Assembly (NCBI GenBank): GCA_964458565.1
Contig: CAYWJO010000002.1
Coordinates: 32,001-96,000, forward strand
Source of the DNA: an uncultured archaeon
Lineage (GTDB): Archaea > Asgardarchaeota > Thorarchaeia > Thorarchaeales > Thorarchaeaceae
Length of the DNA stretch: 64,000 nucleotides
Direction of reading: 5' to 3'
The notes under the pieces are model-generated. The model did no database searches, was not told the DNA's origin, and worked only from the letters and a program-made list of their open reading frames with translations. This document shows positions 13,754-20,396 of this stretch, piece by piece. The position numbers and the translations under genes were made by a program. Position 1 is the first letter of the stretch. Each line of letters starts with the position of its first letter.

Positions 13754-13828
13754 TAATACTTGGTCTTAAAGGATAAACTTGGTGAGTATGATTACCTCTT
13801 TAGAGTAATACCATATGGTGAGAACCAG

Positions 13829-14578
13829 ATGCCTGATAGAGCTCAATCAGAACTATATGCTTCAATAGCGACCCTCGATCAACTCAAGAAACTTTATGAT
13901 GTTGGCGCAGTTGATCCCCGGTCTTACCAGCGTGAAACTGAGGGATTACTTACTGAGGTTAGATTCCATCTTGATGAACTAAGACGAGTTGGGCTTGATG
14001 TTGGAAGATTTATTGAAACTGAACGGCTCTCAGACCAGTTTCCAGACGCTCTTCATATTCTTCAGTTGAGAGATACAAATCCATCAACCTCAGTTCAGGG
14101 TATGACAAAAGAGGAATATTATGATTATATCGGACTTTCCGTTCTCGATGTTGTCACTGCTAATTCCTCTAAAGGATTAATGGGATTGGCTGAGTTGATT
14201 GTTGAGGTAGTGCGAAAACTACCTGAATTGAAGTCAGTAAGTTACAATGATGTTATTGAAGCGGTAAATATGGTCGCTCAACATGGTTTAATCCCTGGTA
14301 TTAGGACTCTCAAAGGTGGAGTAAAGGTTGTTGAGCTTCGGCCTTTGGAATTACGCCGAGATCAGGCTGATGTAATCAATATTGCTGCCTCTAAGGGATT
14401 TGTTACTGTAGAAGAAATAATGCTTGAGTTCAAATGGTCTGAGGATCATGCGCGTCAAGTATTGACTAGTCTAGTCGATGCTGGAATGGCCGTTGCTGAT
14501 ATGAGGTTTTCCACAGGTGGCAGATACTGGTTCCCCGGTTTGCGTTCGAGAGACTCAAGTAGTCAAACGCATCCATAA
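13829..14578 (+). CDS. ESCRT-II Vps22/Vps36 (EAP30)-like protein with Vps28-N-terminal-like region
   Basis: C-terminal tandem winged helices match the Vps22 pattern (YYDYIGLSVLDV..GLMGLAEL..VSYNDVIEAV..GFVTVEEI..FKWSEDHARQVL..LV..G..RYWFPGL). N-terminus ELYASIATLDQLKKLYDVGAVDPRSYQRETEGLL resembles Vps28-N. Start ATG 13829 after GGTGAG. Confidence 0.85.
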   Translation: MPDRAQSELYASIATLDQLKKLYDVGAVDPRSYQRETEGLLTEVRFHLDELRRVGLDVGRFIETERLSDQFPDALHILQLRDTNPSTSVQGMTKEEYYDYIGLSVLDVVTANSSKGLMGLAELIVEVVRKLPELKSVSYNDVIEAVNMVAQHGLIPGIRTLKGGVKVVELRPLELRRDQADVINIAASKGFVTVEEIMLEFKWSEDHARQVLTSLVDAGMAVADMRFSTGGRYWFPGLRSRDSSSQTHP

Positions 14579-14579
14579 T

Positions 14580-15296
14580 CTAAAGTACCAGACGAACTGC
14601 TCCCTTCTGCTTGTCAATCCACTCTGCTAATTCTCTTTCTACAAGAAGCTTGATCACATAATGAATTTCTTTCTCAGGAAGTTTAGCAAAATTTTGTTTA
14701 TTTTCTTGAATCACAATAGACTTCACATCTAATCGAGTTCTACCATTTTCTAAAGCCCATTGATAGATTATATCTGCCCATTCTTCCAAGAAACGCCAAT
14801 ATACTCTCAATTGACGCTTTTTCCCCTCCATCCAAATTCCTACTTCTTTCTCAACAATCTTGTCGCCAATTTTTCTATAAGCATCGGCCTTGTTCTGGAT
14901 GTCTTTGAATGGATATTCTGACACAAACTTTGAGAAGCTAAGGATATGAATTGAGTATTCTTCACACCATTCGAGAACGAAATCGGACCACTCGGATGCC
15001 CACATCTGTAAATCCTCCTCTCTTACAGGAATGTGGTACATCCACTCAGTCTGTGATATGTCTCCCCAGCTTGGTAGTAACCGAGGCTCTTCTACAATCA
15101 TTTCTATTTCTGATTTAGTTTCAACAATACTACCTTTCTCTATCTCAGCTTCTGTTTCGATGATAGGCATTTCTTCGTGAATCATTGATTCCGTTTCAAT
15201 TTGAGTTTCAGTCTCTTGTTCTTCAACTATACCTTCTTTGGCATCGCTCTTATCAACTGACTTTTGTTTTCGCCTGATTCGCTCTCTCTCTCCCAC
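14580..15296 (-). CDS. vps25: ESCRT-II Vps25-like protein with acidic N-terminal extension
   Basis: QMWASEWSDFVLEWC, YPF and VYWRFLEEWADIIYQWA match Vps25 motifs; adjacent to Vps4. Confidence 0.85.
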   Translation of the reverse strand: MGERERIRRKQKSVDKSDAKEGIVEEQETETQIETESMIHEEMPIIETEAEIEKGSIVETKSEIEMIVEEPRLLPSWGDISQTEWMYHIPVREEDLQMWASEWSDFVLEWCEEYSIHILSFSKFVSEYPFKDIQNKADAYRKIGDKIVEKEVGIWMEGKKRQLRVYWRFLEEWADIIYQWALENGRTRLDVKSIVIQENKQNFAKLPEKEIHYVIKLLVERELAEWIDKQKGAVRLVL

Positions 15297-15299
15297 AGG

Positions 15300-16532
15300 C
15301 TAGGAACCCTCCGCCCAATCACTATACTTCTTCACGTCTTCCGGTGACGTTGCTGGTCTAATGTTATCAATGGCGTCTAGAAAATCCTTTCGTGAAACGG
15401 TTCTAAGATCCAGAATCTCGGTGTCATCATCCATTCTTCCGGTGCTTTCAAGTTCTCTAATTGGTTCCATAGCTGCTTCCCGACATACTATACTTAGATC
15501 TCGACCGCTGTATCCTTCTGTTAGCATAGCCATCTCATTAAAATCAACATCAGGCGCGATATCAACACCCTCAATATGTATCTCAAAAATCCGTCTTCTA
15601 GCAATCTTGTCAGGAAGTGGAACATGAATGCGTTTCTCAAAGCGGGAACGTAGAGCAAAATCAATCTCCCATGGTAAATTCGTCGCACCAATGAGAGTGA
15701 TTCTTTCATCTGCTTCACTAGCTAACCCTTGAAGCTCCGTCAACAGTTGTGTCTTTAATCTACGTTCTCCACCAACATCGTCTCCAGACCTCGCTACCCC
15801 AATTGAGTCCAGTTCATCAATAAATATAATCGCAGGCTGCATGCTTCGCGCTCGTTCAAATAGCATCTTGACAAGTTTCTCCGATTCTCCCAACCACTTA
15901 CTTACAATATTTGCTGCTGAAACATTGAAGAATGTTGCACTCACTTCTGCAGCAACCGCACGAGCTATCAACGTTTTCCCGCATCCTGCAGGTCCATAAA
16001 GTAGGATTCCTTTCCATGGTTGTCTTGCTTTACCTCTGAACAACTCAGGGTGTTTCATTGGGGCTACGATTGCCTCTGTGATTGCTTGTTTTGCCTTCTC
16101 AAGTCCTGCTACATCTGCCATACTTCCATGTGGTGTTTCAGTAATGATGGTGTCTGCAATCATATCTCCAAGTCTTTTTCCATCCTCATCATCAGTAGAG
16201 GGGACCGGTCTATCTGACTCAGAGGTTCTTGTATCTTCAACAATTGTTGTTGGGAGTGTGCTTATCCCATCTATTGGCCCTCTTGATTTCTTTTTAATTC
16301 CTGACAGATATCTGACTCTATCAACACATTCCTGAGCTCTATCCAAGTAGTGTTTCCGAACAGAACGTAATGTTGCTGCGTTAGAGAGCTTAATCAATAT
16401 CTTACTCGCTTGCAAGTATTGTCTTGCAGCTTCCTTTTTCATTCCCCTTCTGTCTAGATCGATGGCTTTCTCAAGGAGTTTCCTGAGTCCTTCATCGAGT
16501 CTATTACTACCTGAATCTGACATTTTCTTCAC
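15300..16532 (-). CDS. vps4: Vps4 AAA+ ATPase (MIT + AAA)
   Basis: N-terminal MIT (KAIDLD..EAARQY), GILLYGPAGCGKT, SKWLGESEK, IIFIDELD, GATNLPW, RFEKRI. Confidence 0.93.
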   Translation of the reverse strand: MKKMSDSGSNRLDEGLRKLLEKAIDLDRRGMKKEAARQYLQASKILIKLSNAATLRSVRKHYLDRAQECVDRVRYLSGIKKKSRGPIDGISTLPTTIVEDTRTSESDRPVPSTDDEDGKRLGDMIADTIITETPHGSMADVAGLEKAKQAITEAIVAPMKHPELFRGKARQPWKGILLYGPAGCGKTLIARAVAAEVSATFFNVSAANIVSKWLGESEKLVKMLFERARSMQPAIIFIDELDSIGVARSGDDVGGERRLKTQLLTELQGLASEADERITLIGATNLPWEIDFALRSRFEKRIHVPLPDKIARRRIFEIHIEGVDIAPDVDFNEMAMLTEGYSGRDLSIVCREAAMEPIRELESTGRMDDDTEILDLRTVSRKDFLDAIDNIRPATSPEDVKKYSDWAEGS

Positions 16533-16662: not shown

Positions 16663-17271
16663 TTGGGTACATTCAAAAAAGCATGGTCTTGGGGTCGTAA
16701 AAAACCCGACATATCTGAGGTTTCTAGTCAATTACGTATTCTAATAAAACAGTTAGAACGTCAGAGAAATAAATTGGAAAAAGAGGAACGTGACACGAAA
16801 GCTCGTGCTATTCGTGCGCGACAAGCAGGTCAGAATGAAGCATATGTGACCTATGCAACTGAAATGGTTCGATTTCGTCGCTATGTTCTTTCAATCGATA
16901 AATCCCGCTTACAGATGTTGAAGATTTTGGCTCATCTAACCCGGGCACAGACAACTGCTAAAGCAGCGAAAGCTATGGAAGATGTTGCTAAAATCCTTGG
17001 AATGCTTGGGGACTCCATGGATGCCTCAAAGGTCATAGAGAATGCTGATGAAATTGCTCGTCAAGTTCAAGAGTTCGAAATCGAATCTGGTATTGCTGAT
17101 GATGCATTCGATTCTGCTATGCCTGAGATTTCTAGTGAAGACATCGCTGAGGCTATGGCTGAAATCGACGCTGAAGTTGGTGGTAAAGCAACTGTTGGAA
17201 AACGTCCGGCGACTGAAGCGGAAGCATTAGAGGATGACATTAAAGCATTGGAACGAGAGCTAGGTGTGTAA
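16663..17271 (+). CDS. ESCRT-III subunit, Vps2/24/46-like
   Basis: Amphipathic N-terminus MGTFKKAWSWGRKK, basic helical hairpin (ARQAGQNEAYVTYATEMVRFRR), acidic C-half, MIM1-like end EDDIKALERELGV; divergent from vps4. Confidence 0.9.
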   Translation: MGTFKKAWSWGRKKPDISEVSSQLRILIKQLERQRNKLEKEERDTKARAIRARQAGQNEAYVTYATEMVRFRRYVLSIDKSRLQMLKILAHLTRAQTTAKAAKAMEDVAKILGMLGDSMDASKVIENADEIARQVQEFEIESGIADDAFDSAMPEISSEDIAEAMAEIDAEVGGKATVGKRPATEAEALEDDIKALERELGV

Positions 17272-17275
17272 CGCT

Positions 17276-18835
17276 CTATAGATCATATCTTCTTTCTGCA
17301 GAGTGTCTCTCAATTTCTCGACGTGCATAATATGAATCTCGCATCAGGCTACGATATCTTCTGATAAAATCTTCAGGAACGATTCTTCCAGCTCTCAACA
17401 TATGAATAGTTTCCCGAATTGCGTCATCAAGCGCTCTTGCATCTCTTCTCATATTATCAAGATTTGGTCTTGTTTGACGCTCGTAATATTGTGGCGGTGT
17501 TCTCTGGCCTATTAGTTGTTCCAAATGGTCGCTGAACCGTTGCTGACTACCATAGTTTTGTGAATATCCAACTTGACGGTCTCTTGACCATTGATCAGTC
17601 TGCGGTTGCGGATAATATCTCGAAGTATCTTGTGCATAACGAGGTCCTGTCATTTTGGAATTCAGTATTGAATATACAATTCCCTCAATTCTTAGTCGAA
17701 TATCGCTGATGTTGGTGTCGGTCTGTTCTAACTTTCTCACACGCTGCATGTCAGTCTGAACATATCGTTCAAATCTACGTGCGATTTCAATGTAGTCTGG
17801 AAGAACTCTTTTCGTTTGATCACTGCAGATAATTTTAAGATCTCCCTGTTTCAACTTCAAAACCAATCGTTTTCGAAGTCGACCATCTTCTTGTATATCT
17901 TTCAGATACAGAAGTGGAAAATCAAAAACGATGTCAGTTTTTTTCCTTACCAACCCCGTTTCAGCAACGAAAATCATTCTTTTATTTGTGATAAAGAGAC
18001 TTCCTGTAGCTTTGTCATTCTTGATAAAATCGCTTCCTGCAAGAGTTATTGGTGAGAACGCGCTCACAGGTAGTTCATTGACTGAAAGTTCAGAGTATTC
18101 GTAAAAGGGTGAGAATTTATCTCTATAATACTTCAACCCATCTAGTTGTTTCTTTACGTCATCCATAGTCAATCGTGCTTGAACCAACGTTTCTTCCACA
18201 AGAGCTCGGTAGCTTATTCCAAGTTCAGTAATTCGATTAACAACTCCTTCAATAAAGGGAAATTGAGATGGACTCCAAGAAGACTGATCAATCAATCCTT
18301 TAGTTTCTGCAACCATCTGTTTAGCTACAATCTCGGCGTGATTTCCAATTCGCTTCTTTATCGCTGGGAATTCAGCATGTATTTCTTCAATTCTCTCTTC
18401 CAACCACTTGTAATGAAGGAAATTAGCCATCCTTAGAGATACCAATAATCTCTTTCCAGCGACCATTCGATTTGTGAATTCCTTAAGTTTCGTGTGTCCA
18501 TATTGCAGGCTCATTATCGCACTACGCATATCATGAGCTAACTCTCTTTGCTTCTCTGATATGTGTACGATTCTACTTGAATGACAGTGAGGGCAAACCT
18601 CCATTGTCCTCTTACCAATCCCAAGGTTCTCAGAGTCGCACTCGGGACATTTCAAGGGATTTTCACCTGGCAATGGGACTCCAAGATTGTGCTGGCAATC
18701 TTTGCACATTCGGTATTCTCTAACTCTCTGTTCCAAACATGCTGAGCAAATTGTAGTTCCGCAGTCCTCACACATATGAGTTGCAGACTGATTCTCACAT
18801 TCCTTGCATGTTAGGTTTGAGGAATCTGCGGTCAT
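17276..18835 (-). CDS. Zn-finger / coiled-coil / GRAM-PH-like / steadiness-box-like protein (putative ESCRT-I subunit)
   Basis: Six CxxC pairs in aa 10-84; helical aa ~95-240; ATGSLFITNKRMIF (aa 276-289); Q/Y/P/R-rich linker; C-terminal ALDDAIRETIHMLRAGRIVPEDFIRRYRSLMRDSYYARREIE. Confidence 0.7.
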   Translation of the reverse strand: MTADSSNLTCKECENQSATHMCEDCGTTICSACLEQRVREYRMCKDCQHNLGVPLPGENPLKCPECDSENLGIGKRTMEVCPHCHSSRIVHISEKQRELAHDMRSAIMSLQYGHTKLKEFTNRMVAGKRLLVSLRMANFLHYKWLEERIEEIHAEFPAIKKRIGNHAEIVAKQMVAETKGLIDQSSWSPSQFPFIEGVVNRITELGISYRALVEETLVQARLTMDDVKKQLDGLKYYRDKFSPFYEYSELSVNELPVSAFSPITLAGSDFIKNDKATGSLFITNKRMIFVAETGLVRKKTDIVFDFPLLYLKDIQEDGRLRKRLVLKLKQGDLKIICSDQTKRVLPDYIEIARRFERYVQTDMQRVRKLEQTDTNISDIRLRIEGIVYSILNSKMTGPRYAQDTSRYYPQPQTDQWSRDRQVGYSQNYGSQQRFSDHLEQLIGQRTPPQYYERQTRPNLDNMRRDARALDDAIRETIHMLRAGRIVPEDFIRRYRSLMRDSYYARREIERHSAERRYDL

Positions 18836-19148: not shown

Positions 19149-20396
19149 TTGATAAAATTGAAGAAGCGTCTTGTTCTGAGTCCTGTATTTGCCCTTGCGG
19201 TCCTGATATCCATGCTGTTTTTTTGTCCTGTTTCTTCGGTGAAAGTTGATACTTCAACTACATATATTGATAGACTTGATTACTGGCCAACAAATGGATG
19301 GTTCACCTCAACACCTGAAGCACAGAGTATGAATTCAACGCATCTCGAACAGATGAGGGACTTTGTACTTGATAGGGATTGGACCTTTGATTCAATTTTA
19401 GTGATTAGGAACGGCTACATGGTCTTTGAGTTTTATCCAAATCCCGAGTATAATGTGACAACAGTCCATGATTTAGGGTCTGCTGCCAAGAGTATTACTG
19501 GTGCCATTATAGGAGTAGCTCTTGAAAATGGGGATTTTACAAACCTGAATAATACAGTAGTAAGCTTATTCCCGGATAGAATCATTGCTAATCTTGATGT
19601 GGATAAAGAAACAATGACTGTGGAACATCTCCTAACTATGTCATCAGGACTAGATTGGATTGAAGACGGTGATGATTCCGATCTAGCAGCCCTGTTTGAG
19701 CCTATCGATTTTGTTCAATATATCTTGGACAAACCAATGGCACACCCACCCGGTACATATCATTTCTATAGTAGTGCTGATTCACATCTTTTATCCTCAA
19801 TAATTAATGAAACAACGGGCATGTCCGCACTTGAGTACGGCTTTCAAAATCTCTTTCACCCTCTTGGGATTACAGATGTTGAGTGGTGGACTGATTCACA
19901 AGGAGTTTCTATTGGTGCAGGATGGCTCAATATGACACCTCGGGATATGGCGAAGATTGGGTATCTATACCTTCACAATGGTTCTTGGGATGGACAACAA
20001 ATCATTCCATCATCATATATTGAGTCGTCTATAGAGCCACATTTTTGGGACCCCTCTCATAATCTTCACTATGGCTATCAGCTGTGGGTCGATTCCACCT
20101 TGGATGCATTTGAAGCAAGAGGTGCCTTTGCCCAAAGAATTTGGGTGCAACCCAAGAATGATTTAGTTGTAGTTTTCACCGGTCCTGGTTATAACAAATA
20201 CTTGAACTCATCTCGCACAATGACTGGTTCGCCTGAGATTTTAATTAACGGGTTTATTCTACCTGCTCTTCTCTCTGAAACAACAACTACTCCTACGCCA
20301 GAATCATTTCCGATAAGTCTAACAACAATTGGTCTTCTAGCAGGTGCAGCAGTTCTTGTTGTGATAGTCCTTGAGATTTTCAGACGCCGTAGATAA
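19149..20396 (+). CDS. Membrane-anchored serine hydrolase (beta-lactamase/AmpC family)
   Basis: Signal peptide, SAAK (SxxK), HLLTMSSG, YSS, TPRDMAKIG; Thr linker + TM + RRRR. Confidence 0.9.
   Translation: MIKLKKRLVLSPVFALAVLISMLFFCPVSSVKVDTSTTYIDRLDYWPTNGWFTSTPEAQSMNSTHLEQMRDFVLDRDWTFDSILVIRNGYMVFEFYPNPEYNVTTVHDLGSAAKSITGAIIGVALENGDFTNLNNTVVSLFPDRIIANLDVDKETMTVEHLLTMSSGLDWIEDGDDSDLAALFEPIDFVQYILDKPMAHPPGTYHFYSSADSHLLSSIINETTGMSALEYGFQNLFHPLGITDVEWWTDSQGVSIGAGWLNMTPRDMAKIGYLYLHNGSWDGQQIIPSSYIESSIEPHFWDPSHNLHYGYQLWVDSTLDAFEARGAFAQRIWVQPKNDLVVVFTGPGYNKYLNSSRTMTGSPEILINGFILPALLSETTTTPTPESFPISLTTIGLLAGAAVLVVIVLEIFRRRR

Follow-up and report, generated by a model that had tools for sequence, protein, structure and literature searches.

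The 64,000-nucleotide stretch of archaeal DNA analysed here (the window) carries, on its minus strand at positions 17276-18835, a gene for a 519-residue protein that combines a zinc module, long helices, a PH domain and a steadiness box. These domains hold up, but their combination has been described before: the protein belongs to an already published Asgard family, Znr_CC_PH_SB, or 'SB'. [quoted passage not shown] The modules of the gene are as follows.

17276..18835, minus strand: whole gene, Znr_CC_PH_SB / 'SB' protein, 519 aa, from the open reading frame (ORF) list and translation, with an ATG start and the stop codon at 17276-17278

18560..18835, minus strand: zinc module, residues 1-92, six CxxC pairs (three putative Zn sites), from cysteine conservation, Pfam and PDB profile matches

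18113..18559, minus strand: 'CC' region, residues 93-241, three long helices (92-136, 144-178 and 189-241), from AlphaFold2 with a predicted local distance difference test score (pLDDT) of 95-98

17756..18103, minus strand: GRAM/GLUE-type PH domain, residues 245-360, from the domain model, Foldseek, VIA-align and K/R conservation

17639..17755, minus strand: two short helices, residues 361-399 (helices at 363-371 and 377-391), from the AlphaFold2 secondary structure

17471..17638, minus strand: linker rich in Q, Y, R and P, residues 400-455, predicted to be disordered (pLDDT 38-59) and of variable length in the family

17279..17470, minus strand: Vps23-type steadiness box, residues 456-519, a helical hairpin (459-481 / 487-518), from profile and structure match

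The frame, its length and its ATG start on the minus strand agree with a preliminary description of this DNA. AlphaFold2, run with an alignment of 69 sequences, gave a model of the whole protein with a mean pLDDT of 87.9 and a predicted template modelling score of 0.68. Single-sequence Pfam matches are all below threshold, although they agree in the modules that they indicate: DZR at residues 30-84 (E 1e-3), zf-B_box at 7-35 (E 1.8e-3), Vps23_core at 467-508 (E 5.5e-3), bPH_3 at 274-335 (E 0.012) and FYVE (E 0.52).

Makarova et al. (2024, mBio, PMC10936438) described the family Znr_CC_PH_SB (cog.011556), in which three zinc ribbons are combined with a coiled coil, a PH domain and a steadiness box. 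By their account eukaryotes lack the family, which is probably ancestral in Asgard; they regard it as a likely part of ESCRT-I, with a PH domain that should associate with membranes. A sequence labelled 'ThorAB25_08990|SB' is among those used for yeast two-hybrid work by Hatano et al. (2022, Nat Commun, PMC9192718), with Vps25 (ThorAB25_09020) and Vps22 (ThorAB25_09030) close by. Supplementary figure 8 of that paper draws ESCRT-I-like proteins of Heimdall-, Odin- and Lokiarchaeota, and its domain key lists RING, CC and PH besides steadiness boxes.

One homologue, P0051, aligns with the window protein at 57% identity over 96% of its length (E 9e-192), and carries both the N- and the C-terminus printed for ThorAB25_08990. 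A Lokiarchaeial homologue (family profile E 1.4e-153) lies between L35Ae and MetE-Snf7. This is the same order as for the Lokiarchaeum GC14_75 member of cog.011556, which is tabulated between L35Ae and MetE-Vps20 (Makarova et al. 2024, PMC10936438). The window protein is taken to be a member of the published family because P0051 carries the ThorAB25_08990 termini, and the Lokiarchaeial synteny and the architecture agree. It shares with Znr_CC_PH_SB and ThorAB25_08990 the order of modules (three zinc sites, helices, PH, linker, steadiness box) and the ESCRT neighbourhood, and there is no essential difference between them. The novelty implied in the preliminary description therefore does not hold, since both papers (PMC9192718, PMC10936438) contain the same architecture and functional inference.

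A word-index search returned 163 homologues, mostly from Thorarchaeota metagenome-assembled genomes (MAGs) and with 50-78% identity, all annotated as 'hypothetical' or 'B-box zinc finger protein'. More distant relatives, 460-900 aa long and with 19-33% identity, came from an exhaustive HMMER search. Across this range of about 460 to 900 aa, the added length falls between the PH domain and the steadiness box. Named homologues come from Thorarchaeota, Promethearchaeota or Baldrarchaeia, plus single MAGs labelled Lokiarchaeota and Hodarchaeota. The profile search, which covered genomes within the phylum of the window, matched 193 of 201 sampled genomes, 42 of 43 in the window's own family, and a single copy in the window's genome; a search of all databases gave 100 matches, none of them named. 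This places the protein among the most widespread of ESCRT-associated Asgard proteins, and it has no eukaryotic orthologue.

The six CxxC pairs of the zinc module are at residues 10/13, 22/25, 30/33, 44/47, 63/66 and 81/84, exactly where the preliminary description had put them. Each of the twelve cysteines is conserved to 90% or more in the Asgard-wide alignment of 69 sequences, on which the conservation figures are based, and eight are invariant in a 68-row alignment of the N-terminal region. Judged from these alignments, such conservation is far beyond chance. In the AlphaFold2 model, residues 1-91 form a small beta-rich zinc region. The Pfam model zf-B_box scores 18.9 bits for the window protein against a curated cut-off of 24.1 (E 1.8e-3). 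It reaches an E of 0.01 or lower in 25 of the 69 family members (best 1.3e-5), and an ANCHR-like B-box is matched in 12 of the 69. When a profile of residues 1-95 was compared with the PDB, it matched the RNF4 RING (E 5.5e-7), the TRIM2 B-box and PHD, and more weakly the FYVE fingers of EEA1 (1hyi, E 0.011) and RUFY1 (E 0.016). At the level of profiles, these are matches to generic cross-brace fingers. A protein-atlas look-up with residues 1-92 gave no usable match.

The pairing of the cysteines is hinted at by two relatives, P0180 and P0195 (the latter from a Baldrarchaeia cluster), in which C10/13 and C30/33 are both substituted, with the spacing unchanged and the other four pairs kept. Because these pairs are lost jointly, it is suggested that C10/13 and C30/33 together make one Zn site around C22/25, in the manner of a cross-brace followed by a zinc ribbon. 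In the module as a whole, C10-C47 probably make up a cross-braced, binuclear finger like that of B-box or RING, with a zinc ribbon (C63-C84) behind it. The preliminary description had proposed that C81/84 closes the cross-brace, around an inserted ribbon. This would refine the published description, in that the first two zinc sites look cross-braced rather than being two independent ribbons.

The preliminary description read the same region as a FYVE finger of ESCRT-0 type, and this identity is rejected. The C-x2-C-G-x3-C-x2-C stretch at residues 22-33 does have FYVE spacing, but the spacing is also common to B-box, RING and PHD fingers. The Pfam FYVE model (PF01363) scores 10.9 bits against a cut-off of 27.8 (E 0.52), and both RING and B-box match better. 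The motifs WxxD, R(R/K)HHCR and RVC, which define the pocket for phosphatidylinositol 3-phosphate (PI3P), are absent from the 519-residue sequence; the surroundings of C22 read ATHMCEDCG, with no basic motif. The preliminary description had itself remarked that the RRHH motif was missing. The window protein and the FYVE fingers of Vps27/Hrs and EEA1 are thus alike in being cysteine-rich, probably cross-braced and similarly spaced, and differ in the motifs for PI3P binding.

The three helices at 92-241 are modelled as an intramolecular helical bundle. Structurally, this region matches a designed helical bundle (5j0l_A, Z 9.5, over model residues 99-235) and nothing else. BAR-PH and other known folds were considered for the helices and found no support in the search with the whole model, which returned this designed bundle only; no BAR domain is among the matches listed for that search. 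A DH-PH arrangement of the helical and PH parts found little support either, with a template modelling (TM) score of about 0.2 and a likeness of architecture only. In the linker, a PPxY late-domain motif (PPQY at 447) is taken as chance, being absent from 17 Thorarchaeota orthologues.

The PH domain is modelled as seven strands (256-336) plus a C-terminal helix (339-353), and residues 238-368 also give a PH fold when folded alone (pLDDT 88.8). The stretch GSLFITNKRMIF is a strand motif at residues 278-289, and G278, T283, F289 and G294 are at least 90% conserved. The best Foldseek matches are to the Lam6 GRAM (1.3e-4) and yeast Vps36 GLUE (2cay, 1.9e-4, TM 0.57), followed by human EAP45 GLUE (3.6e-4) and the MTMR2 PH-GRAM (TM 0.64). 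VIA-align gave MTMR2 (Z 12.7), Lam6 (Z 11.9) and EAP45 GLUE (Z 10.4), with 143 chains at Z of at least 8. Pfam matches in the PH region of the 69 members are to bPH_3 (27), GRAM (7) and Vps36_ESCRT-II (PF11605; 2, best 4.3e-5). A PH profile matched 2cay with E 0.082, and a protein-atlas look-up gave only leads below 0.9 (bPH_3, GRAM and Vps36). The GRAM/GLUE-like label in the preliminary description is therefore right, although GLUE is not singled out, since GRAM and bacterial PH domains match equally well. Eleven positions of the domain are K or R in at least 60% of sequences phylum-wide (275, 285, 286, 297-299, 319, 322, 323, 334 and 353), and this conserved basic surface would fit binding to an anionic membrane.

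The C-terminus resembles the steadiness box of Vps23/TSG101, as the preliminary description had proposed. A family profile of the C-terminal 65 residues matches yeast Vps23 (2f66, E 5.3e-8), TSG101 (6vme_B, 1.2e-4) and Vps37B (0.13) in the PDB, and Pfam Vps23_core is found in 12 of the 69 members (best 7.2e-6). The hairpin superposes on 6vme_C, from the human ESCRT-I headpiece, with a root mean square deviation of 2.0 over 65 residues and a Z of 9.7, which is in the range where helical matches need care, although the match spans the whole hairpin. The preliminary description had hung on a likeness of this end to Vps23_core/Mod_r and on a PH fold at residues 245-355, and both are present. As a separate observation, the steadiness-box profile also matches residues 97-155 of PDB 8whn_A, a 161-residue 'Ribophorin 1 superfamily protein' (E 1.3e-4). 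This entry is reportedly cited in a paper about the Asgard ribosome-translocon machinery.

A candidate partner for the hairpin is encoded close by.

13760..14578, plus strand: SB-Vps22, an ESCRT-II EAP30 tandem winged helix with an N-terminal steadiness box, from Pfam

13829..14095, plus strand: predicted partner, a Vps28N-like (steadiness-box) hairpin, residues 24-112 of SB-Vps22, from Pfam VPS28 and complex prediction

SB-Vps22 matches Pfam VPS28 at residues 30-110 (E 3.1e-3) and then EAP30 (E 2.8e-15). Its listed ORF begins with TTG at 13760, and nearly all of 46 aligned orthologues start at the Met that is residue 24 (13829). The true start is probably 13829, which would give a gene of about 249 aa.

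The predicted complex of residues 452-519 with SB-Vps22 24-112 has a score of 0.80, compared to 0.01 for the best of three controls. Of 80 solved complexes, 58 attain this mark, as do 2 of 110 mismatched pairs; these counts apply roughly here, with own alignments used. The three runs share 100% of their contacts, and the pLDDT of the partner is at least 82. In the window's genome, which is 93% complete, the sole Vps28N-like match is the N-terminus of SB-Vps22, and the sole Vps23_core match of any strength is the ORF at 17276-18835. A 528-aa acidic coiled-coil protein was considered as a second steadiness-box protein in the genome, and its Vps23_core match (E 0.12) was taken as coiled-coil noise; it is encoded at L003:991-2577 (G000:C42) and has a possible C-terminal winged-helix region. 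An interaction between a steadiness-box protein and Vps22 has been reported for Lokiarchaeota, and self-interaction of Vps22 for Thorarchaeota (Hatano et al. 2022, PMC9192718). Two further refinements of the published family are the assignment of the PH domain to the GRAM/GLUE type and SB-Vps22 as the probable source of the partner hairpin.

A natural gene fusion points in the same direction. Three species of one other Asgard genus carry the Zn-helical-PH module in one protein with an EAP30 tandem winged helix, and with a steadiness box on neither side. The fused proteins are of 601-608 aa and comprise P0149, MFX1485568.1 from the same cluster, and orthologues that share 59-64% identity; the third is truncated by the end of a contig. 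Outside this genus, the Zn-helical-PH and EAP30 halves are separate genes. By the Rosetta-stone argument, the fusion therefore supports a physical link of the 17276-18835 protein with SB-Vps22. In two of these species, the neighbours of the fusion gene include Snf7 and a gene for an OB fold. The fusion loci are L017 (G053:C138:83400-85202), L018 (G044), L019 (G061), L004 and L024, in species with small genomes.

From these results we propose the following mechanism. The basic PH domain, possibly aided by the zinc module, would place the protein on the membrane. The steadiness-box hairpin would then pack onto the Vps28N-like hairpin at the N-terminus of SB-Vps22, and this pairing would couple the ESCRT-I-like adaptor directly to ESCRT-II, which would in turn recruit Vps25, ESCRT-III and Vps4. 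Targeting in this host would be by recognition of membrane or cargo and not of ubiquitin, because the host family has no detectable ubiquitin and neither UEV nor E2 was detected in the window's genome. Ubiquitin (PF00240) was found in none of 13 genomes of the window's family, nor in the window's own genome, but in 73 of 101 in a phylum sample. Because these 73 gave matches, the search works, and the absence is lineage-wide among the sampled genomes. The searches of this genome for UEV and E2, which had no positive control, gave no match, and Pfam gave no UEV match in the 519-residue protein. It has been reported that Thorarchaeota are without ubiquitin (Hatano et al. 2022, PMC9192718). The suggestion in the preliminary description of a ubiquitin-independent membrane or cargo adaptor is therefore plausible, given a host family without ubiquitin. 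The family is also present in ubiquitin-bearing lineages, and so the independence is a property of the host and not of the protein.

This last point is one of several that weigh against the proposed coupling of membrane and ESCRT-II. The score of 0.80 may reflect likeness to the solved Vps23-Vps28 headpieces (2f66, 2caz, 2p22 and 6vme). The eukaryotic headpiece has three hairpins, whereas the search of the window's genome yielded no more than two candidate hairpin proteins; a single adaptor together with a dimer of Vps22 could supply all three, which is speculation by analogy. The Lokiarchaeota steadiness-box protein of the two-hybrid work is not confirmed as a family member, its locus tag being absent from the text and supplements searched. 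In the PDB, the PH profile has its best match in a bacterial PH domain to which no function is assigned (3dcx, E 0.0097), and among PH-like folds there are also binders of peptides or of ubiquitin, and some with no known ligand. That the protein binds lipid, contains zinc and forms the complex is at present predicted, next to a domain architecture and a locus that can be seen directly.

Some of the same evidence could be read differently. The protein might be an adaptor for cargo or protein recognition, in which the PH-like domain and/or the zinc module binds a protein or peptide, or the finger acts as a RING/B-box interaction or ligase module, with membrane contact made via other subunits. 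This would fit the N-terminal matches to RING (RNF4, E 5.5e-7) and B-box (TRIM2), the presence of RING among the ESCRT-I domains in the key of Hatano et al. (2022, PMC9192718), and the fact that many of the top matches of the PH domain are PTB or protein-binding PH-like domains, such as the PTB domains of CCM2 (Z 11.1) and IRS-1 (Z 10.5) and ubiquitin-bound EAP45 GLUE (Z 10.4). However, a ligase would be left without a substrate system, since ubiquitin was found in none of 13 relatives, and neither it nor a UEV or E2 was detected in the window's genome (with the limit on the UEV and E2 searches given above), and the best structural matches are to the lipid-binding GRAM/GLUE group, with the basic surface conserved. 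We regard such a role as rather improbable. A role in division, like that of CdvA, is a little less probable again. Here the protein would sit on the membrane and draw ESCRT-III/Vps4 to the place of division, while its steadiness box would associate with itself or contact ESCRT-III, and not form a bridge to ESCRT-II. The gene is indeed convergent with Snf7, 4 bp apart, and the Lokiarchaeial and fused relatives also adjoin Snf7; a common ancestry of the steadiness box and the CdvA hairpin has been proposed in print, and for Thorarchaeota there is a report of possible ESCRT-I/II to ESCRT-III interactions that bypass Vps25 (Hatano et al. 2022, PMC9192718). The predicted interface nevertheless points to Vps22 and not to ESCRT-III, as does the natural fusion, and neither a PRC barrel nor a CdvA-type ESCRT-III-binding peptide was seen in the protein. 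A division role also concerns the cellular process, and is compatible with a bridge to ESCRT-II.

The original idea of an undescribed chimera, made of an ESCRT-0-type FYVE finger, a Vps36 GLUE and a Vps23 steadiness box, is very improbable. It has in its favour the FYVE-compatible spacing of residues 22-33 and the weak profile matches to EEA1 and RUFY1. These are outweighed by the Pfam FYVE result, the absent motifs, the better matches to RING and B-box and the published architecture. What stands of the combination is the PH domain, with GLUE among its best matches, and the Vps23-type steadiness box.

The proposed ESCRT-I-like adaptor can be compared with eukaryotic systems. Like Vps23/TSG101, it ends in a steadiness-box hairpin, predicted here to pack on a Vps28N-like hairpin and preceded by long helices and a flexible linker. 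Unlike Vps23/TSG101, it has no UEV, in place of which there is a zinc module and a PH domain, in a host family without ubiquitin. Its helices are modelled as an intramolecular bundle and not as part of a heterotrimeric stalk, and no Vps37 or Mvb12 partners were found for it. With Vps36/EAP45 it shares the PH fold (2cay, TM 0.57) and the association of zinc fingers with a PH domain, as in yeast Vps36. In yeast Vps36, however, the fingers are inserted in the PH domain, whereas here they are N-terminal, and in the window the PH module and EAP30 are separate proteins, joined by the predicted steadiness-box pairing.

The fusion described above yields an order like that of Vps36, PH then EAP30. A tentative idea, which we hold to be possible but doubtful, is that the Zn-helical-PH module and SB-Vps22 together correspond in archaea to eukaryotic Vps36, and may even be ancestral to it, being paired by steadiness boxes in most Asgard, with the eukaryotic GLUE descended from the PH domain of this module. 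If it were true, the eukaryotic boundary that separates ESCRT-I from ESCRT-II would have arisen through re-partitioning of one Asgard assembly. More generally, the protein is the best candidate for bringing the archaeal ESCRT machinery to the membrane, especially in the ubiquitin-less Thorarchaeota, and the question of membrane recruitment bears on the origin of the eukaryotic sorting pathway. Given that the architecture and the general inference are in the literature, the finding itself adds little. Of use for work on the protein are the prediction of pairing with SB-Vps22, the EAP30 fusion lineage and a warning about gene models that lack the first zinc knuckle.

This warning arises from 23 orthologues (for example P0031, P0037 and P0051) that have been called from an internal Met just ahead of C22, and thus lack the first CxxC. 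At one related locus (L027, 5789-5998) the reading frame stays open upstream of this Met and, after a likely TTG start, codes for the first CxxC (...CRSC...). The sequence printed for ThorAB25_08990 in the supplement of Hatano et al. (2022, PMC9192718) begins at the same internal Met, and the two-hybrid construct may lack one zinc knuckle.

Together with SB-Vps22, three further neighbours complete a five-gene ESCRT locus.

16663..17271, plus strand: ESCRT-III, Snf7 family, from Pfam Snf7 (4.9e-14)

15300..16532, minus strand: Vps4 (MIT + AAA + Vps4_C), from Pfam AAA (1e-39), Vps4_C (2.2e-5) and MIT (7.8e-4)

14580..15296, minus strand: Vps25 homologue (ESCRT-II) with an acidic N-terminal extension, from Pfam ESCRT-II (E 5.1e-14)

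Snf7, Vps4, Vps25 and SB-Vps22 are all inside 3.5 kb, and the same set of ESCRT neighbours was found in a relative. The Snf7 gene at 16663-17271 is convergent with the 17276-18835 gene, with 4 bp between the two stop codons, and a second Snf7 paralogue is found elsewhere in the window's genome. The extension of the Vps25 homologue is of about 95 residues and very rich in E, T and I, with the ESCRT-II domain match at residues 100-187. On the other side of the 17276-18835 gene, between it and a PmbA/TldD pair, is a 415-aa ORF (19149-20396) with hydrophobic segments at both the N- and C-terminus. At the related Thorarchaeota locus L027 the PmbA/TldD pair directly adjoins the orthologue, and for this reason the ORF at 19149-20396 looks to have been inserted in the window's lineage.

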